From contig NZ_CBDDRA010000004.1 in the NCBI RefSeq assembly GCF_965232925.1, positions 4,222 through 26,407 on the forward strand: a DNA stretch of 22,186 nt. The letters are read 5' to 3'. Source of the stretch: Tumidithrix helvetica PCC 7403. Lineage in GTDB: Bacteria; Cyanobacteriota; Cyanobacteriia; Pseudanabaenales; Pseudanabaenaceae. Position numbers and translations under genes: made by a program. Positions 1 to 19,150 of the stretch are shown piece by piece (position 1 is the first letter of the stretch; every line of letters starts with the position of its first letter). The notes beneath the pieces were generated by a model. It worked only from the letters and a program-made list of their open reading frames with translations. It had not been told where the DNA came from and ran no database searches.

Positions 1-319
1 ACAGAGTAGCACTATGCAACAGCCGATGGTTCCAGTAGTAGAGATAGTCAACCACAGCGAAACTGAATAGGAAACTCAAAAGTGGTGACACGATGAGGCA
101 GCCCGATTGACTCGGTAATAGCCATTGATAGGTCTGAGCCAGCAGCGTTATCTGTAAAAGCGGAATAAGAACGCCCTGAATCGCCAACCCCGCAAGATCT
201 AGCAACCATTCCTCGCCGCTTTTGGTTTTGATTTGCGTGCGCCCCACTCGATTCGCCCAGGTCAGTGCCATCAGCCCCCAAAACGTTACAAAAACTGGAA
301 ATTGGATGAGGTAGGACAT
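1..319 (-). CDS. Fatty acid hydroxylase / sterol desaturase superfamily membrane di-iron protein, N-terminal part only (gene continues past the left edge)
   Basis: Absent from the ORF track because there is no stop in the window. The ATG is at 319..317, 4 nt after the stop of the Rieske gene. My manual translation stays open down to position 2: MSYLIQFPVFVTFWGLMALTWANRVGRTQIKTKSGEEWLLDLAGLAIQGVLIPLLQITLLAQTYQWLLPSQSGCLIVSPLLSFLFSFAVVDYLYYWNHRLLHSATL. Hydrophobic helices are followed by DYLYYWNHRLLH, the first histidine box (HRxxH) typical of this family. Confidence 0.7.
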   Translation of the reverse strand, partial: MSYLIQFPVFVTFWGLMALTWANRVGRTQIKTKSGEEWLLDLAGLAIQGVLIPLLQITLLAQTYQWLLPSQSGCLIVSPLLSFLFSFAVVDYLYYWNHRLLHSATL

Positions 320-323
320 GCCC

Positions 324-1352
324 TTAAACCCAAAATGTCACGGATACTGACCGATCTGGCAATTCACGCGGATCTTTTCCCTGAGCGATCGCTGCCCGAA
401 TCGATTCCACAAATACATGAATGGTATCCGCAGGTGTATGGGCAAACTTCGTGCCATACTTGGCGATCGCTTCTCCCTGAATGCCCAAAATTTTAATGTC
501 TTGATGAATAATGCGCTGAGCCGTCCACCATACCAGCGGACGCGCCAGTTGATTCCAAAGACCATAGTTGTAGGTAACATCGGTGTAAACCAGCGTGGAG
601 AGTTCGGTTTCGGGAATGGATTGACTCGTAATCAGGAGTTGGCGATCGCGCCCTAAGATATATTCCACAGAGGTGATATTGGGCATATAAAAGCAATCCC
701 GATGTTTAATTTCCGCACCCTGTCCGTTTAAAAATCGAGTATACCAGCCCAGATTATTGGTTTCATGGTGATATTCCACCAGTACAGCCCCCTGCCGTCG
801 TTCCACCTGCATCGCTAGCTGCTGCTGCCTTGCTGTGCGAAAGATGCCTGGATGTACAAAGGCAGTGTGAGGAATATCGATAAAGTTCTCAACACAATTG
901 GTGACATTATTGGCAAAACGATTGATCGTCCGCACCGTCTCCCAGCCTGTTTCACGATAGTGCGGCATGGCAAAGGGGCGCGATGACTTTGGTGTGGCGC
1001 TCAAGCGCACGTAGATATAGCCATCCTGCTCGCAGGTGTCGTACCGCTTTACCTGTCTGGATTTTTCCTGTTTGAACGCAGTGCCCTCGGCGGGTATAGC
1101 AACGACATTGCCCTCGCGATCGTACACCCAGCCGTGATAAGGACATTGCAAAGTGCCTTGACAGACTTGTCCCTGAGATAAACGACTGTGGCGGTGCAAG
1201 CAGCGATCGCGCAATGCTACTGCCTGTCCATCCTTGTCGCGAAATATCACGAGCCATTCATCCAAAATTATCCGCGCTAGTACCGTATTAGGGCGCAAGC
1301 GATCGCTTAAAGCGACAATGTACCAAAAGTCCTCGAATCCCATGCCTGTCAT
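324..1352 (-). CDS. Rieske [2Fe-2S] non-heme iron oxygenase, alpha-subunit-only type (PaO/Tic55/phthalate-family-like)
   Basis: Rieske motif CLHRHSRLSQGQVCQGTLQCPYHGW (CxH...CxxH). Mononuclear-iron motif NCVENFIDIPHTAFVH (ExxxDxxHxxxxH). I place the start at ATG 1352 (MTGMGFEDFWYIVALSD...), which forms an ATGA overlap with the ferredoxin stop (1349..1351). The 92 extra N-terminal residues of the 434-aa track ORF are low-complexity and overlap the ferredoxin gene. Confidence 0.85.
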   Translation of the reverse strand: MTGMGFEDFWYIVALSDRLRPNTVLARIILDEWLVIFRDKDGQAVALRDRCLHRHSRLSQGQVCQGTLQCPYHGWVYDREGNVVAIPAEGTAFKQEKSRQVKRYDTCEQDGYIYVRLSATPKSSRPFAMPHYRETGWETVRTINRFANNVTNCVENFIDIPHTAFVHPGIFRTARQQQLAMQVERRQGAVLVEYHHETNNLGWYTRFLNGQGAEIKHRDCFYMPNITSVEYILGRDRQLLITSQSIPETELSTLVYTDVTYNYGLWNQLARPLVWWTAQRIIHQDIKILGIQGEAIAKYGTKFAHTPADTIHVFVESIRAAIAQGKDPRELPDRSVSVTFWV

Positions 1353-1639
1353 CCCTCTAGTTTGCGAATCTCCAGATCCGCAGTGAGTTCGATCTGACAG
1401 GCTAAACGTGCATGGGCATGATGGGGAGCCAAGGTGTCTAGCAGTTCTAATTCCTCTGGCTTGGGGGGAGGGATCTTGCCCGTTATCTCCACAAGGCAGG
1501 TGCCGCAAATCCCAGTCCGACAACCAAATAGCACAGGGGAATTTTGAATCGTCAGATGCTCCGACAGGTTTTCTTGGAGGGCTAGGGTAATCGATGGGAA
1601 TTTTGTGCCCGGAAAGTGAATTGTGCAAAGATCAGACAT
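1349..1639 (-). CDS. [2Fe-2S] ferredoxin, probable dedicated electron donor of the oxygenase block
   Basis: Cluster-binding pattern CRTGICGTC (Cx4Cx2C) plus a distal Cys in ARLACQ. Small size. Start taken at ATG 1639 (MSDLCTIHF...), giving an 8-nt overlap with the upstream stop; the alternative ATG at 1666 gives 105 aa. Confidence 0.8.
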   Translation of the reverse strand: MSDLCTIHFPGTKFPSITLALQENLSEHLTIQNSPVLFGCRTGICGTCLVEITGKIPPPKPEELELLDTLAPHHAHARLACQIELTADLEIRKLEG

Positions 1640-2822
1640 CGCCAACACCTTGGTGCTGTCGCTCAAACACCTGAAAAGCTTGGCGTTGCCTTGCCAAATA
1701 TTGGGGAATGGAATTGGCTGCCATTAACGACATTTCCCGATTAATTTTCCAGAGATAATCAAGGGGTTCGACATAAACACGGTAGGATTGCATGGCTTCT
1801 TGGTGGGTTTGATAGCTGCGGTGTAACCCGAGAGTCTCCTCCGTAAAACATTGTCGCATCATAGCTCTGGCTTCGGCAGCTTCCATGCTAAAGATCGGCG
1901 ATCGCAATACCTCATAAATCTTGGCATATAGGGCTGGGTCGTACCAAAAGATGCCGTTGATTGCTGCCGAGAAATGATAATGATCGCGCTGACAGCCCTT
2001 CACGCCCATATTGGCTACGAGGGCTTCAAACGCAGTGGGCGGAGGCAGACAAGTTCCAATATCGTGGGACAGGATCGTAGAACTGTTGAAGTGAAAACTC
2101 TCATCCAAAAAATGATAGTAGGAAATTTTGGCAGGAATGGGAGCATTGTCTGGGTCGGGGTGCTTTTGGTAGTACTGGCTGAGTTTGTGTTGTACCAATT
2201 TGCCATTCAGCGTGCGAATGCCGCGCACTGTGAAATATTGGCAAGCGAGAAAGGTATTGTTGGCAGAAATTAAGCCGAAATATTGGAGTTGTAGCTTTTT
2301 CCACCAGGTTTTCAGGGCAGTGGTATCGGCATAGACCATGGTTTCGGTGAATGGTCCCCGCATCGGATAGGTGAAAAGGTGCCGTCCAAACAGCGCTCGT
2401 TCCACATCCCTAGACACGGTGCGGAAAGCGTGGATGTGGGCGCGTTCCTGAGAGGATTCTAAATCTAAGGTGTCGCAGACTAAACGAAAGTCCTCTTGGG
2501 CGTAAAGTCCAGCGGCACTGGTCTGGTTAAAAAAAATGGTCGCAATTTCGGCGGAAATAATTTGGGAATAATAGGCTACCCAATAAAGTTGGTTGAGTAC
2601 CAGCCGTTGCGATGGACTTGCCTGTTCCCACACAGGCGTACCGTATAGGAGCGAGAACTCTTCAGGATTCCAATACTCATTTTTGCAAGTGTCATAGCAA
2701 AAAGACTGCGCGGCTTCGTCCATCGCGGCGGTGCGATCTTGCTGCCGATTGCGCCTGTAGTTAATCTGAAGTTTGCCATAGGTGGTGGCGTTGTCAGAAA
2801 GTTTCTGGATGGCTTGGTTCAT
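1632..2822 (-). CDS. Soluble diiron-carboxylate oxygenase, AurF (p-aminobenzoate N-oxygenase)-like family
   Basis: IISAEIAT ... 34 residues ... SQERAHIH gives E...ExxH. YYHFLDESFH gives HxxxExxH, the same spacing as the second-half metal ligands of AurF. Start taken at ATG 2822 (MNQAIQKLSD...), 22 nt after the upstream stop, with GGGGAA about 8 nt upstream. The track start at 2885 would overlap the upstream gene by 41 nt. Confidence 0.75.
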   Translation of the reverse strand: MNQAIQKLSDNATTYGKLQINYRRNRQQDRTAAMDEAAQSFCYDTCKNEYWNPEEFSLLYGTPVWEQASPSQRLVLNQLYWVAYYSQIISAEIATIFFNQTSAAGLYAQEDFRLVCDTLDLESSQERAHIHAFRTVSRDVERALFGRHLFTYPMRGPFTETMVYADTTALKTWWKKLQLQYFGLISANNTFLACQYFTVRGIRTLNGKLVQHKLSQYYQKHPDPDNAPIPAKISYYHFLDESFHFNSSTILSHDIGTCLPPPTAFEALVANMGVKGCQRDHYHFSAAINGIFWYDPALYAKIYEVLRSPIFSMEAAEARAMMRQCFTEETLGLHRSYQTHQEAMQSYRVYVEPLDYLWKINREMSLMAANSIPQYLARQRQAFQVFERQHQGVGDV

Positions 2823-2844: not shown

Positions 2845-3756
2845 TCACAGGCATCGATCGGGCGGTAGCGGTTCAAAGGCACCACGTTCTGCTAAAGCTT
2901 GCACAATTCCAACTGCGGTTTCGCCTCGCATCAACGATCGCAACAATTGTAGTCTTTTGCCACTGTGGGTTTCAGTCCCTAATTCTTGTAGGATTTGAAT
3001 TTTCTGCGATCGCGTCAGATGTCCCTTAACCTGCTCGATCGCTCCCACCACACTTTGCGGCCCCACCTGCACCATCCGCAAAAATGTTGCTAGCACATCG
3101 GCAATCGCGGCGTGACTTGCTGTGGATCGAGCCATTCGATCGAACAGCGTGAAACCCGTGCTATGGTGACGGGCTTCGGCATGGAGGAAGCTAGAAAACA
3201 GATCGGACAGCCTGCGATCGCCACAGGTTTTAGCTAATTGGCGGTAGTGACCGATCCCCCAACCTTCTAGGACTACCTGAACGACAAAGAGAAGTACGGC
3301 TTTGTCCGCACCATTCACGACATCTGCTAATAGGCGCAAAAAAGGACGATCGCGACTATCTGGTTCTGGAACTGGCAAAAAATGTCCGATTTGACTGAGA
3401 TGGGTGGCTTCATCCGCTGCAAATAGTGCGTATAGCATACGCTCCTCCACCGTTTCTGCCAACAGCACCATCTTTGCCATGTAGCCAACTCCCGCTTTCT
3501 CAATGAAATAGGCTTCTTCTAGCAAGCTCTGATTGGCAAGCTGAAGTATGGTGATTTGTTCTATGTCATCTGCGTCTTGGAATAATTTGACTCGATCCAG
3601 ATTGAAAAATGGCGCGTTCCAGTAAATTCCTTGGGCAGAGGTGTGAATCCCGCGATCGCCACGCTCCTTTAGTGCTGCCGCTAATATTCTTTGCAATGGG
3701 CGATCGTCCTTGGCATGGGGTAAGTCCAGACCAGCAATTCTAAGATCTAAGCTCAT
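2845..3756 (-). CDS. Ferritin-like diiron-carboxylate protein with two E...ExxH motifs, function unknown
   Basis: LLEEAYFIE ... about 35 aa ... ADEATH, then VLEGWG ... 30 aa ... HAEARHH. This is the classical six-ligand four-helix-bundle diiron signature. The ATG at 3756 overlaps the upstream Rieske stop as ATGA. Confidence 0.7.
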   Translation of the reverse strand: MSLDLRIAGLDLPHAKDDRPLQRILAAALKERGDRGIHTSAQGIYWNAPFFNLDRVKLFQDADDIEQITILQLANQSLLEEAYFIEKAGVGYMAKMVLLAETVEERMLYALFAADEATHLSQIGHFLPVPEPDSRDRPFLRLLADVVNGADKAVLLFVVQVVLEGWGIGHYRQLAKTCGDRRLSDLFSSFLHAEARHHSTGFTLFDRMARSTASHAAIADVLATFLRMVQVGPQSVVGAIEQVKGHLTRSQKIQILQELGTETHSGKRLQLLRSLMRGETAVGIVQALAERGAFEPLPPDRCL

Positions 3757-4862
3757 GGGACTTCCCTATCCTCTAAAGCAAGAATGGCAGAAATGGCATT
3801 GTGTGATGGCAAGGGAGGAATATCGCCGCTCTCATCCTGTGGAACGGGTTCCCAAGTCGCCCATGCGATCGCTTTCTGCTGATTAACATGTTGCATGAAT
3901 TGCAGAATGGATCGATCTGCGAAGGTGGGAGTTTTGAGATCGAACTGAATGGTTTGAAACACTTGCGTATCGCCCTTTGCAAAGTAATTACCCACCTGCT
4001 GCGTTAACCACAGTAATATGCGATTTAACGCCCACCCCAAGCAGCCAGCGCGCTTTGGGGTCATCAAAATGGTTTGCCCTTCGGTTTTATTGCCCGCGAT
4101 CGGTCGCAGGGCAAACATAATATAAAAGTGCAGGAAATCAGGCCCCAAGGTTACAGTTCCCGTACTGCCATACCAGTAGCACATGCTGTAGGTGACGGCA
4201 TTGCGGTAGAGAGGGCGAATCAAACGAATCAGCCACGATTCATTTCCTCCCTGCGTGATATTGTTAAATGCAATCGCGTTTTCATGAAGGATTGATTTGT
4301 CAAACACGATCTCTAAGGGAAGATTGTGAACTGTGTTGAAGTGATGAGCATCGATCGCATTGATCAGCAACACATTGGGGTGACAGTTTTTCACAAACCG
4401 AGAACCCAAAACAGAATCCAAGTCGATTCCTTCTAATTCGGGCGCATAGGGCAGCGCGCGTGGTGTTGCTTCTCCCACCCAAACCCAGACCAAACCATAG
4501 ATCTCGGCAGTTCGCCATATTTTTACGCATACGGGTAGCGGTTTTTCGAGTGCGGGCACATCTAAGCAGATTCCTTGCGCGTCATACTTCCAATTATGGA
4601 AAAAACAGCGAAGGTCATCACCATCTACCCTACCCTCGGCAAGATGTGCTCCCATGTGCGGACAATAGGCATCCATCGCTACAGTCTGACCGTTCGCGCC
4701 CCGATAAATTGCCAAATCTCTGCCCATCAGTGTTACGGCTTTCACTTTGCCCACTGGTAGCGATCGCGAAGGGATTGCCCAGTACCAACCTGGTACAAAT
4801 TGTGTTGAGCTATTGAAGTTCAGGTTGGTACTCACAAGAGGTAGAAGTAGCTCCGCAGTCAT
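3753..4862 (-). CDS. Rieske [2Fe-2S] non-heme iron oxygenase (second, divergent copy)
   Basis: Rieske motif CPHMGAHLAEGRVDGDDLRCFFHNW. Catalytic iron motif NAIDAHHFNTVH (DxxHxxxxH). The N-terminus (FVPGWYWAIPSRSL) is typical of alpha subunits. No beta subunit is present nearby. Confidence 0.85.
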   Translation of the reverse strand: MTAELLLPLVSTNLNFNSSTQFVPGWYWAIPSRSLPVGKVKAVTLMGRDLAIYRGANGQTVAMDAYCPHMGAHLAEGRVDGDDLRCFFHNWKYDAQGICLDVPALEKPLPVCVKIWRTAEIYGLVWVWVGEATPRALPYAPELEGIDLDSVLGSRFVKNCHPNVLLINAIDAHHFNTVHNLPLEIVFDKSILHENAIAFNNITQGGNESWLIRLIRPLYRNAVTYSMCYWYGSTGTVTLGPDFLHFYIMFALRPIAGNKTEGQTILMTPKRAGCLGWALNRILLWLTQQVGNYFAKGDTQVFQTIQFDLKTPTFADRSILQFMQHVNQQKAIAWATWEPVPQDESGDIPPLPSHNAISAILALEDREVP

Positions 4863-4901: not shown

Positions 4902-5282
4902 CTAAACAACATTCTTAATCGTTTCTAACAAGCTGAGGGTACAAGCACCCTTGTCACAAAACGCATCGATTGTCGCACCATTCTCCGTAGCACGAGCTTT
5001 ACCGCCCTCTGCCGCAGAGTAAGCCACAATTTTAATATCGGGATATTGACTTTTAATATAACTAGAGGCTGCCCATCCATCCATCACTGGCATATGCAAA
5101 TCCATCACAATCAGGTCAGGATTGCACTTTTGAGCTTTGGCGATCGCTTCTTTGCCGTTGCTTGCCACTTCCACAGCTTTAATATATGACTGACGCGAAA
5201 GGGCGAGCTTTAACGTACATCTGGTTAACTCGTGGTCATCAACCACTAAAACACGTAAAGGAGATGTTTTTGTGGATGTCAT
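4902..5282 (-). CDS. Stand-alone response-regulator receiver (CheY-like) protein
   Basis: LRVLVVDDHELTR (acidic pocket), DLIVMDLHMPVMDG (phospho-acceptor Asp), KIVAYSA and a conserved Lys region. At 126 aa it has no output domain. Confidence 0.85.
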   Translation of the reverse strand: MTSTKTSPLRVLVVDDHELTRCTLKLALSRQSYIKAVEVASNGKEAIAKAQKCNPDLIVMDLHMPVMDGWAASSYIKSQYPDIKIVAYSAAEGGKARATENGATIDAFCDKGACTLSLLETIKNVV

Positions 5283-16540: not shown

Positions 16541-19150
16541 TCAAACATGGGCATAGAGTTTTGGACGATATCGGCTTTGGGCTCGCTCTAAACAGAGATT
16601 AAAATCTTTTGCCAATGCTGCGACATGGGGTTCCTGAAACATCAATGGATGAGATCCAGGTACATCAAACATTTCCAGTGGTTCAGAAGTCCTTTTGCTC
16701 CAAGATTTATAATGCGCCACGATCGCCCATTCTTGGTAAACCTCGCGATCGGTAGGTTGAAAGAAGGTGATTTTTCCCGAATAAACCGATGGGTTATAGA
16801 TCTTCGTCGCCTCTCGATGCGCCGCAATCAGCTCTGAGTTTCGTAAAGGATTGGCAATAAACTCAATTGCAGTAGATTTTTGAAAATACTTAGCGACGCG
16901 ATCGTATAAATATTGGAAGCCAAACTGAAGCGTATAACGGAAGTGACGGGCAACCTTTTGATGCAATCGAAAAGGCTGGCGATCGCCCTCGGCAAAGGTA
17001 TCAAATAACGCCAACAGCGCTACCTCTTCATGATTTCGGTGTAGTTGTTGGGCAATCTCAAAGGCAACAAGTCCACCAAACGAATATCCCATCAGGTAAT
17101 AAGGTCCCTCTGGTTGAATTGTCCGAATCTCGGCGAGATAGCGTTCAGCCATGGCTTCTACCGTACTTAGGTGTGGCTCTTGTTTGTTATACCCCTGCGC
17201 GACTAAACCGTAAAAGGGCTGATCGGAACTTAAGTGATTGGCAAACTGGCGATAGCACATGGCTCCGCCGTAAACATCATGAATTCCAAACAACGGGGGC
17301 TTACTACCATCTGGCTCGATCGCAAGGAGCAGAGAGTGCGTGTCAAAGGTTGATGTTTCTTGTTGCGCGAGAATATTGGCAAGATTTGCGATCGTCAGCG
17401 TTTTGAAGATGGTGTCAGGAGCCAAAACGGTATTAAAAGCTTTTTCAATTTGAGTTAGTAAGCCTACTGCCTGTAGCGAATCTCCTCCTAAAGCAAAGAA
17501 ATTATCGTCAATACCAATCTGTTCGACGCCCAACACATCAACCCAAATTGCGGTTAAGGTTTTCTCAACGGAGGTCTTGGGGGCTACAAATTCCTGCTTG
17601 AGATGAGATGCCAAGACTTGAGCTAGCCCAATTCGCTGGACTTTTCCATTTGTACTCTTTGGAAGGTCGTCTAGGAATACAATTTGACTGGGAACCTTAA
17701 AGCTGACTAATTGTGTAGAGGCAAATTCTCGGATTTCTTCGACTGTAGCCGATATGTAAGGCTTTAAAACCACGGCAGCGGCAATGTCTTCACCCAAGCG
17801 AGGATGGGGTACGGCAAACGCCACTGCTTGGGCAATCTTTGGATGTTTTAACAGCACTTGGTCTATTTCGTTAGGAGCAACTTTTTCACTACCGCGATTG
17901 ATTAATTCCTTAATGCGACCGATCAAAAAGAGATAACCATCCTCATCCAGATAGCCCCGATCGCCTGTCCTAAACCAACCATTTGTAAACCCTTGACTAT
18001 TTGCCGTTGGATTTGCTTCATAGCCGTTAAAGACATTGGCTCCTTGCGTGACAATTTCTCCCGCTTGATGGGGCTGTAAGAAGTTACCAGTTTCATCCAC
18101 GATCGCAATTTTGGTATTGACGGCTCTACCGACCGAGCCAACTTTGCTCTGAAGTGGTGGAAGGGAATGACAGGCAATCTGATAAGCTTCTGTCAATCCA
18201 TAGGCTTGCGTAAAGGTTGCACTAAAAGTGTTTTCTAACTCATAAATCAAATCGGAAGAGATGGCAGCAGAAGATGAACGGATTAATCGCAACGAGCACT
18301 GACGCAGATCTCGATCTTGCTGTTTTGCCGCAGCGATCGCGGCTTGATGCAAGGTGGGGACAGATGTATACCAAGTCGGTTGGAACTCTTCTAGCCAATC
18401 AAAAAAGTGATTTGGGTTAAACCCAGGTGTGGAAACGACACTCGCACCAGCACCGATCGATGACAATAAGGCTCCCAATAGTCCATGACTATAAATGAGA
18501 GGCATGACGATCAGACCGCGATCGCTCGGTTGCAAGTTCAATGCCAAGCGAATATTCCTTGCGGCGCTACAGAGATTGAGATGGGTCAGTGGAACTATTT
18601 TGGGCTGTCCTGTCGTACCCGATGTATGTAAAATCAGAGCTTGGTCATTGGGTTCTATAATATGCGGCTCAGGTGCTGGTTGACTAGCTTCTCCAGCTAA
18701 TAGAAAACAGCCTGCATCTCGATCTTCTAAAGGAATTAGTTCAATGATTTTAAGTTGGCAAGCCTTAGCAGCCTCTCTAGCAGAGGGGTTTAGCCCTTCT
18801 CTAACAATCAGGAACTTAATCTTAAAAGTGGTAAAATATCGTTCGAATTCCGCTTGGGTAAATCGAGGGTTTAGGGGAGCGCTGACCGCACAAGAGCTAA
18901 TAGCAAGGAAGGCAACTGCCATTTCTGGACTCTCTGGAAGCACAAGGGCAACGCGATCGCTTCTACCCACACCCATTCTTCTGAGTATCTCTATGGTTCG
19001 ATCGATCTGAATCTTCAAGCTTCCATAGGACAGAGGATCTCGAGACGGAGCAAGTATAGCCGTTGCTTCTGGTGTTTTTTTATCCCAAATAGCCACCATT
19101 TCATAGATAGTTGAGAACTCTGCATTAGGATTGGCGTTCAATGTGTTCAT
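16541..19150 (-). CDS. NRPS-like tridomain enzyme: adenylation (ANL) - thiolation (PCP) - thioesterase
   Basis: A domain: LHTSGTTGQPKIV, YGLTEA, GEIVTQGANVFNGY, WFRTGDRGYLDEDGYLFLIGRIKELINRGSEKV, PKSTNGKVQR. PCP: FFALGGDSLQAV (Ser558, codon about 17477-17479). TE: GYSFGGLVAFEIA (GxSxG, Ser690). Confidence 0.9.
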   Translation of the reverse strand: MNTLNANPNAEFSTIYEMVAIWDKKTPEATAILAPSRDPLSYGSLKIQIDRTIEILRRMGVGRSDRVALVLPESPEMAVAFLAISSCAVSAPLNPRFTQAEFERYFTTFKIKFLIVREGLNPSAREAAKACQLKIIELIPLEDRDAGCFLLAGEASQPAPEPHIIEPNDQALILHTSGTTGQPKIVPLTHLNLCSAARNIRLALNLQPSDRGLIVMPLIYSHGLLGALLSSIGAGASVVSTPGFNPNHFFDWLEEFQPTWYTSVPTLHQAAIAAAKQQDRDLRQCSLRLIRSSSAAISSDLIYELENTFSATFTQAYGLTEAYQIACHSLPPLQSKVGSVGRAVNTKIAIVDETGNFLQPHQAGEIVTQGANVFNGYEANPTANSQGFTNGWFRTGDRGYLDEDGYLFLIGRIKELINRGSEKVAPNEIDQVLLKHPKIAQAVAFAVPHPRLGEDIAAAVVLKPYISATVEEIREFASTQLVSFKVPSQIVFLDDLPKSTNGKVQRIGLAQVLASHLKQEFVAPKTSVEKTLTAIWVDVLGVEQIGIDDNFFALGGDSLQAVGLLTQIEKAFNTVLAPDTIFKTLTIANLANILAQQETSTFDTHSLLLAIEPDGSKPPLFGIHDVYGGAMCYRQFANHLSSDQPFYGLVAQGYNKQEPHLSTVEAMAERYLAEIRTIQPEGPYYLMGYSFGGLVAFEIAQQLHRNHEEVALLALFDTFAEGDRQPFRLHQKVARHFRYTLQFGFQYLYDRVAKYFQKSTAIEFIANPLRNSELIAAHREATKIYNPSVYSGKITFFQPTDREVYQEWAIVAHYKSWSKRTSEPLEMFDVPGSHPLMFQEPHVAALAKDFNLCLERAQSRYRPKLYAHV

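Follow-up and report, generated by a model that had tools for sequence, protein, structure and literature searches.

Organization of the locus

The region analysed here is a stretch of 22,186 nucleotides (nt) from the cyanobacterium Tumidithrix helvetica PCC 7403 (contig NZ_CBDDRA010000004.1, positions 4,222 to 26,407; hereafter, the window). Near its left end, a minus-strand gene (1632..2822) encodes a 396-aa CylC-like dimetal-carboxylate protein, the orthologue of Synechocystis sll0266 and a member of a clade with glutamine at position 211 (Gln211 clade). It is the single CylC-like family member of this genome. All of its cassette neighbours within the window lie on the same strand. Upstream are the genes for Rieske oxygenase A (369 aa, 3753..4862) and a second diiron protein, ferritin-like and with a canonical ligand set (303 aa, 2845..3756). 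Downstream follow a 2Fe-2S ferredoxin, the presumed electron donor (96 aa, 1349..1639), Rieske oxygenase B (342 aa, 324..1352) and the 5' part (2..319) of a gene for a membrane protein of the fatty-acid-hydroxylase/sterol-desaturase family, 247 aa in full. Left of the window (locus L002), a transmembrane plus hexapeptide acyltransferase and a GH3-family adenylating enzyme are encoded, and the opposite strand carries the gene for a third Rieske protein. Adjoining this third Rieske gene, near the contig end, a 151-aa open reading frame (ORF; L002:113-568) matches the CdiI N-terminal domain (E 8e-19). CdiI is the immunity protein of contact-dependent inhibition.

The supported start of the CylC-like gene is the ATG at 2822, which lies 22 nt past the stop of the ferritin-like gene, is preceded by a GGGGA Shine-Dalgarno-like element 9-13 nt upstream and coincides with the start point of the orthologues. 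The longest reading, from the GTG at 2885, was rejected as an over-extension based on this GGGGA element and the orthologue starts, and the residue numbers used throughout take the ATG at 2822 as M1. Two mechanical ORF calls downstream were likewise over-extended: for the ferredoxin, the ATG at 1639 was taken instead of the TTG at 1666, and for Rieske B, the ATG at 1352 instead of the TTG at 1628, which would give a 434-aa product. With these starts, there is an 8-nt overlap (ATGTCTGA) between the CylC-like stop and the ferredoxin start, and a 4-nt one (ATGA) between the ferredoxin stop and the Rieske B start. The three genes, for the CylC-like protein, the ferredoxin and Rieske B, are thus coupled in translation, which is an addition to what has been described for such loci.

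Family assignment

The original prediction, made by eye from the sequence, described an AurF-like protein and asked whether it was an N-oxygenase or a relative of the CylC/BrtJ halogenases with an altered first coordination sphere. The second of these options stood and the first did not. The match to the Pfam AurF family (PF11583) reaches 17.7 bits versus a gathering cut-off of 29.6 and is confined to residues 70-159, in the first half of the protein; a scan of the protein against NCBIfam gave no match. In the precomputed annotation, the identical protein P0002 is assigned to Pfam PF28091 ("CylC-like"), an accession for which our literature search found no paper that mentions it. A phmmer search against 1.84 billion representative sequences recovered a small family of 149 matches, among which are full-length CylC-type proteins (430-470 aa) with 28-35% identity (E 1e-40 to 1e-60).

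On the structural side, the AlphaFold2 (AF2) model, built from 69 sequences, has a mean predicted local distance difference test score (pLDDT) of 92.3 and a predicted template modelling score (pTM) of 0.91. Its four long core helices (70-107, 113-145, 190-219 and 229-258) carry the metal-site residues. The ferritin-like four-helix core and the three-His pattern E...ExxH...HxxxExxH are common to this protein and to AurF/CmlI (PDB 2JCD, 3CHH, 5HYH). A Foldseek search of the PDB placed CmlI and AurF on top, with E values of 0.03-0.2 and template modelling (TM) scores of 0.40-0.58 (CmlI 5hyh, probability 1.0, E 0.034; AurF 2jcd, TM 0.48/0.58). No Foldseek match had E<0.001, and the PDB copy searched contains no CylC-family structure. 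Sequence searches of the PDB gave no match with the single protein and only CmlI, at E 1.1, with the family profile. In NCBI and UniRef, the orthologues go by the name of "p-aminobenzoate N-oxygenase AurF"; such names are automatic transfers and the annotation should be corrected, as the protein is not an AurF N-oxygenase.

The reference for the CylC-type metal site is the study of NocO by Wang et al. 2025 (Biochemistry 64:2173, PMC12101540), who defined nine residues (E, QExxH, E and HxxDExxH), all of them essential for chlorination. Six of the nine are iron ligands. The remaining three, Q128, E252 and D282, are counted as non-ligands because their Ala variants retain iron (PMC12101540), and in the case of E252A, chlorination is abolished while the iron is kept (PMC12101540). 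By its motifs, the protein studied here is a member of the CylC-like family, with eight of these nine signature residues and a Gln at the ninth, the position of E252. Given that this position is the sole one of the nine that is not absolutely conserved and is a Gln in a small subset of sequences (PMC12101540), Gln211 does not exclude family membership. In comparison with the CylC, NocO and BrtJ halogenases (Nakamura et al. 2017; Wang et al. 2025), with which it has the Pfam family, a predicted 3-His/3-Glu site and probably the ferredoxin dependence in common, the protein differs in this Gln, in having ~40-60 fewer residues between core helices 2 and 3, and in the absence of any FAAL (fatty acyl-AMP ligase), acyl carrier protein (ACP) or polyketide synthase (PKS) context.

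The metal site and the missing helix-3 carboxylate

Peptides of NocO were rebuilt from the mutagenesis primers in the supporting information (SI) of that study and placed in the family alignment. In this alignment, NocO E94 corresponds to E92, Q128 to Q125, H279 to H237, H286 to H244 and E252 to Gln211, and the equivalents of E129/H132 and D282/E283 follow from the common QExxH and HxxDExxH motifs. In the window, these residues are found at 2547..2549 (minus strand, as are the following; E92, the helix-1 metal ligand in SAEIAT, equivalent to NocO E94 and AurF E101), 2436..2450 (the QExxH motif, here QERAH, with the ligands E126 and H129 and with Q125 in the second sphere, where it replaces AurF D135), 2190..2192 (the CAA codon of Gln211, which takes the canonical place of the helix-3 carboxylate, that of NocO E252, CylC E283 and AurF E196) and 2091..2114 (the HxxDExxH motif, here HFLDESFH, with the ligands H237, E241 and H244 and with D240 in the second sphere). 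Across the family alignment, E92, Q125, E126 and H129 do not vary. The AurF-like motif pattern reported in the original prediction was confirmed, including the gap of 34 residues between E92 and E126.

The absence of a Glu from the helix that precedes HxxxExxH, also part of that prediction, was borne out more broadly: residues 167-222, a span of 56 residues that covers all of the predicted core helix 3 (190-219), contain no Asp or Glu. Its description of the helix was imprecise, as the helix was ended ahead of KLVQHKL, where the ligand-equivalent Gln211 lies. The Gln of "ACQYF", a by-eye candidate for the equivalent of NocO E252, was discarded since the alignment puts E252 on Gln211 in "KLVQHK". 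Gln211 sits 30 residues before E241, the equivalent spacing being 31 in both NocO (E252-E283) and AurF (E196-E227). In a profile-profile alignment to distant relatives, which include two proteins above the Pfam AurF threshold, Gln211 falls on their Glu (probability 99.7%, E 1e-26). The Pro/Asp-rich loop HPDPDNAPIPAK, which had been taken for an insertion before the last motif, is the ordinary connector between helices 3 and 4 of this family, one residue shorter than in CylC-type proteins and with P228 and P230 (P-x-P) conserved family-wide.

Based on these alignments, the ligands of the predicted metal site are three His and three Glu at most (E92, E126, H129, H237, E241 and H244), with Q125 and D240 as second-sphere residues and without a fourth carboxylate, and the neutral Gln211 is assigned the place of the helix-3 carboxylate of ferritin-like enzymes. 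The differences from AurF/CmlI are the sub-threshold Pfam score, the replacement of the ligand E196 by Gln211 and of the second-sphere Asp135 by Gln125, and another genomic context; the equivalent of AurF D226, D240, is present. Six of the seven AurF ligands are kept, and in the tree the protein nests inside the CylC-like family.

The Gln211 clade

The residues at 12 sites (92/122/125/126/129/200/211/212/237/240/241/244) form the pattern E-E-Q-E-H-R-Q-H-H-D-E-H, which is identical in 120/120 of the orthologues listed (72-81% identity) and is, therefore, not a product of chance. Gln211 is also found in the Gln-type representatives P0122 and P0124 and in all 13 cassette-linked copies, and the lineages that have it comprise Cyanobacteriia, Obscuribacterales, Caenarcaniphilales, Alphaproteobacteria, Bdellovibrionaceae, Planctomycetota and Elusimicrobia. 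The other CylC-like representatives have a Glu at position 211, without exception (18/18). With the AurF-like group as root, a maximum-likelihood tree recovered the Gln clade as monophyletic, with a support of 100 in the Shimodaira-Hasegawa-like approximate likelihood ratio test (SH-aLRT); its stem is long and the branches inside it are very short. A separate clade is made up of the insert-bearing CylC-type proteins (SH-aLRT 99). This topology agrees with the tree that Eusebio et al. 2021 published (BMC Genomics 22:633, PMC8406957). One contig with a Gln-clade gene (L022) is titled "MAG: Klebsiella pneumoniae isolate MH-21oct19-35", but another contig, binned as "uncultured proteobacterium", has the same identity figures; the Klebsiella label is probably the result of mis-binning or mislabelling.

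Complete switches (100%/100%) between the clades are limited to two positions, 211 (Glu to Gln) and 204 (Asn to Thr), and near-complete ones occur at 197 (Tyr to Phe), 207 (Leu to Gly) and 245/246 (TT to FN) (window coordinates 2190-2234 for positions 197-211 and 2085-2090 for 245/246). These positions cluster, with F197, T204, G207 and Q211 on one face of helix 3 and F245/N246 straight after the ligand H244; positions 197, 200, 204, 208 and 211 show helical periodicity. Judged from the alignment, the switches look like a concerted remodelling of the second sphere, in which one face of helix 3 would have lost a polar network. In addition, the Gln clade has ~30 residues between target positions 150 and 180, versus 71-93 in the CylC-type halogenases. 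The suggestion of the original prediction that the substrate could be a carrier-tethered fatty acyl chain, as in the CylC/BrtJ enzymes, found no support for the Gln clade, since the insert seen in the ACP-dependent halogenases is missing from the protein, and the cassette contains neither ACP nor FAAL genes in the loci examined.

The cassette and its distribution

The surroundings of the orthologues were compared by a BLAST search with the ORFs of their loci. The gene set in common consists of Rieske A, the ferritin-like protein, the CylC-like protein, the ferredoxin, Rieske B, the fatty-acid hydroxylase, the hexapeptide acyltransferase and GH3, often with a third Rieske protein (Rieske C). 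It was seen in all lineages that were examined, namely, in other cyanobacteria, in a second class of the phylum, and in metagenome-assembled genomes (MAGs) labelled as Obscuribacterales, Caenarcaniphilales, Hyphomonadaceae, Caulobacterales, Bdellovibrionaceae, Planctomycetota and Elusimicrobia. The ferredoxin gene follows the CylC-like gene in 12 of the 13 loci examined, a placement that is kept across phyla, and none of the loci examined has an ACP or FAAL gene in the cassette. In every comparison, the CylC-like protein ranks first or second in conservation within the cassette. One cyanobacterial locus is an exception, having only the trio of Rieske A, ferritin-like and CylC-like genes, as in the "PriA-containing" cluster of Synechocystis in the literature. 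The published Synechocystis "PriA" cluster also holds a diguanylate cyclase/phosphodiesterase gene (Eusebio et al. 2021, PMC8406957).

An orthologue was identified in ~35 of the 401 sampled genomes of the phylum and is, therefore, accessory rather than core. The idea of a housekeeping pigment or lipid enzyme, which the 72-81% identity across orders had raised, was dropped on account of this limited distribution and of the presence of the gene in non-photosynthetic lineages and other phyla. Several genes of the window were considered as additional members of the cassette. The condensation-domain, inosine-monophosphate-dehydrogenase-like and glutathione-S-transferase-like genes have no match in five other cassette loci, and the receiver-domain gene upstream of the cassette (4902-5282), with no match there save one weak partial one (L007), is probably not a member either. 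An adenylation-thiolation-thioesterase gene (16541-19150) lies in the window at ~14 kb from the cassette.

Gene clusters of this type have been catalogued. Eusebio et al. 2021 (PMC8406957) reported 36 "Rieske-containing" biosynthetic gene clusters (BGCs), each with one CylC homologue and 2-4 Rieske proteins. These usually contain a protein of the sterol-desaturase family; no product is known for any of them, and all are without a carrier protein (PMC8406957). Together with those of the "PriA-containing" clusters, their CylC homologues make up the sister clade of all remaining CylC homologues, and the corresponding cluster in the similarity network takes in a few proteobacterial and Melainabacteria sequences (PMC8406957). 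The locus described here has the composition of a "Rieske-containing BGC", with three Rieske genes, a fatty-acid hydroxylase, one CylC-like gene and no carrier protein. In relation to the sll0266-type homologues of the Rieske/PriA clusters, the protein is a new orthologue of the same clade and neighbourhood, with nothing essential that sets it apart. The altered coordination sphere is, in the same way, not a new idea: a 2021 paper described the clade with its gene cluster, and the variation between Glu and Gln was reported in 2025. What our comparison adds to the literature is that Gln211, its companion changes and the missing insert are, at the level of the sequences compared, a strict cross-phylum marker of the cassette-linked clade. 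Apart from these reports, sll0266 was found in one microarray table, as down-regulated on iron deprivation, and the literature search returned nothing newer than 2025 on the structures of diiron halogenases or on the product of the cassette.

The ferritin-like neighbour and Glu-type relatives

The ferritin-like protein encoded next to the CylC-like gene has the canonical 2-His/4-Glu diiron ligand set (E86, E116xxH119, E164 and E194xxH197), in which E86 was assigned by position, E81 being likewise invariant. E81, E86, E116, H119, E164, H170, E194 and H197 are all invariant from cyanobacteria to Planctomycetota. The fold search with its AF2 model (pLDDT 86) returned generic ferritin-like matches, the best one being the PaaA-like ring-oxidation protein 4mud (E 7e-3), and no match reached E 0.001.

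Among the more distant family members, a Fer2 ferredoxin gene also directly follows the Glu-type CylC-like genes of Moorena producens (L010:10001-11576) and of a Gloeobacterales-like contig (L011:10001-11511), both of which encode short Glu-type proteins without the halogenase insert. This recurrence of a Fer2 gene behind distant relatives supports the ferredoxin as a dedicated reductant. The pair in Moorena adjoins a PKS similar to polyunsaturated fatty acid synthases (with ketosynthase, ketoreductase/dehydratase and PfaD) and a PapA5-like condensation protein. Another Glu-type protein, P0136 (391 aa), was found on two metagenome contigs (L008:7542-8717 and L009:169-1344), where its gene lies immediately upstream of genes for an ABC transporter and for three ATP-grasp ligases of the MvdD type; a 54-aa ORF is located among these. 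Such a context, similar to that of graspetide/microviridin-like ribosomally synthesized and post-translationally modified peptides, suggests that this CylC-like enzyme may modify a peptide and not a fatty acyl chain.

Proposed function and alternatives

Taken together, the protein is best explained as a ferritin-like dimetal, most likely diiron, CylC-like enzyme of the sll0266-type clade that is tied to the Rieske cassette, a proposal to which we give somewhat better than an even chance. In the CylC-type halogenases, the counterpart of AurF E196, a Glu, has been predicted to be swung out and so to leave an open site for chloride (PMC12101540), and Gln211 may similarly leave one iron with an open site. 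Electrons would be supplied by the translationally coupled 2Fe-2S ferredoxin; the activity of NocO needed ferredoxin, ferredoxin reductase and NADPH (PMC12101540). The reduced cluster would then activate O2 and abstract a hydrogen from an unactivated aliphatic carbon of a substrate that is presumably not bound to a carrier protein, but a free or membrane-associated intermediate. The remaining cassette enzymes, namely, GH3, the hexapeptide acyltransferase, the fatty-acid-hydroxylase-family protein, the three Rieske proteins and the ferritin-like diiron protein, would make this substrate and further oxidise it. As the outcome of the radical step, halide transfer, possibly as a cryptic chlorination, is slightly favoured over hydroxylation or desaturation, although we would put it a little short of even; oxygenation or desaturation is only somewhat less probable. 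We lean towards halogenation given that every characterised member of the family is a halogenase, and the neutral Gln should, if anything, favour the binding of an anion at the cluster.

Several points weigh against this proposal. That Gln211 faces the metals and that a site is open would follow from homology and helix spacing. The inactivity of NocO E252A indicates that the Glu matters for halogenation, and the strict Gln comes with the changes at Phe197, Thr204 and F245/N246 and with the long stem branch; the Gln and its companions fit an altered reaction outcome as well as a retained one. To our knowledge, no organochlorine lipid has been described from Synechocystis 6803, which bears the gene. 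The class of substrate is also a guess, and an aromatic acid would be possible considering that the fold nearest to the ferritin-like partner, below the level of E 0.001 significance, is a PaaA-like one, and considering the range of the GH3 enzymes, which handle aromatic acids too. Lastly, sll0266 and its Cylindrospermum counterpart were both screened for expression by Wang et al., and activity was not reported for either (SI Table S3, PMC12101540).

The alternative that survives best keeps the same scaffold and electron supply and makes the Gln clade hydroxylases or desaturases, in which the loss of the Glu and its polar neighbours would redirect the radical to OH rebound or to a second hydrogen abstraction. 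We regard it as a serious but rather doubtful contender. It would account for the two complete switches, at 211 and 204, sharing one face of helix 3 with Phe197, and for the long stem branch between the clades; it is also in line with the abolished chlorination of NocO E252A and with the composition of the cassette, which has six other O2-activating enzymes and no halide-related gene. On the other hand, all characterised CylC-like family members are halogenases, the neutral Gln would be expected to favour and not to disfavour anion binding, and the Gln is derived and not ancestral, as the AurF-like outgroup has Glu or Asp. We are also unaware of a 3-His/3-carboxylate site in any hydroxylase or desaturase, those known to us having four carboxylates. 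From an evolutionary point of view, Wang et al. suggest that the halogenases evolved from hydroxylating diiron enzymes (PMC12101540), which would agree with this alternative.

An AurF/CmlI-type N-oxygenase that acts on an amine, such as an amino-acid conjugate made by the GH3 enzyme, would match the names given by NCBI and UniRef, the nearest solved folds (CmlI and AurF) and the common three-His pattern. We consider it very improbable, since those names were transferred automatically, the Pfam AurF score is below threshold and limited to the first half, no PDB sequence match and no Foldseek match with E<0.001 was obtained, the seventh ligand and the second-sphere Asp135 are both Gln, and the protein nests among the CylC-like sequences, at a clear distance from the AurF-like group. 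Just as improbable is a non-catalytic scaffold or metal-delivery subunit for a neighbour such as the ferritin-like protein or Rieske B: the tight coupling to the adjacent genes and the high conservation rank within the cassette would suit this role, but six ligands and both second-sphere residues that are invariant across phyla are the signature of a working metal site, and a dedicated ferredoxin lies directly behind the gene.

Implications

For this gene, the result is mainly a correction of its annotation, as the AurF N-oxygenase name in the databases is wrong. The gene is a further orthologue of a catalogued orphan clade, and the observation from which we started was right but, for the most part, already described. 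A more speculative and rather unlikely possibility is that Gln211, Phe197 and Thr204 define a functionally distinct cross-phylum subfamily of CylC-like enzymes that acts on a free and not on a carrier-bound substrate. Such a subfamily may represent the first diiron halogenase that works independently of a carrier, with a cryptic chlorination as its step in a lipid pathway of wide occurrence, or a natural "switch" variant that shows how the scaffold chooses between halide and hydroxyl transfer. Under both readings, the halide or the carboxylate of the substrate would take the place of the missing carboxylate.

The CylC-type enzymes chlorinate unactivated sp3 carbons and are hard to use due to their need for a carrier-bound substrate and their poor solubility. 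Eusebio et al. 2021 (PMC8406957) pointed to a clade apparently without the need for a carrier protein as an attractive one for biocatalysis. The cassette to which this gene belongs is conserved from cyanobacteria to MAGs of Alphaproteobacteria, Bdellovibrionaceae, Planctomycetota and Elusimicrobia, and the invariant Gln of the clade, at the position that was placed by Wang et al. beside a proposed open halide site, is a natural experiment on the open-coordination-site hypothesis.

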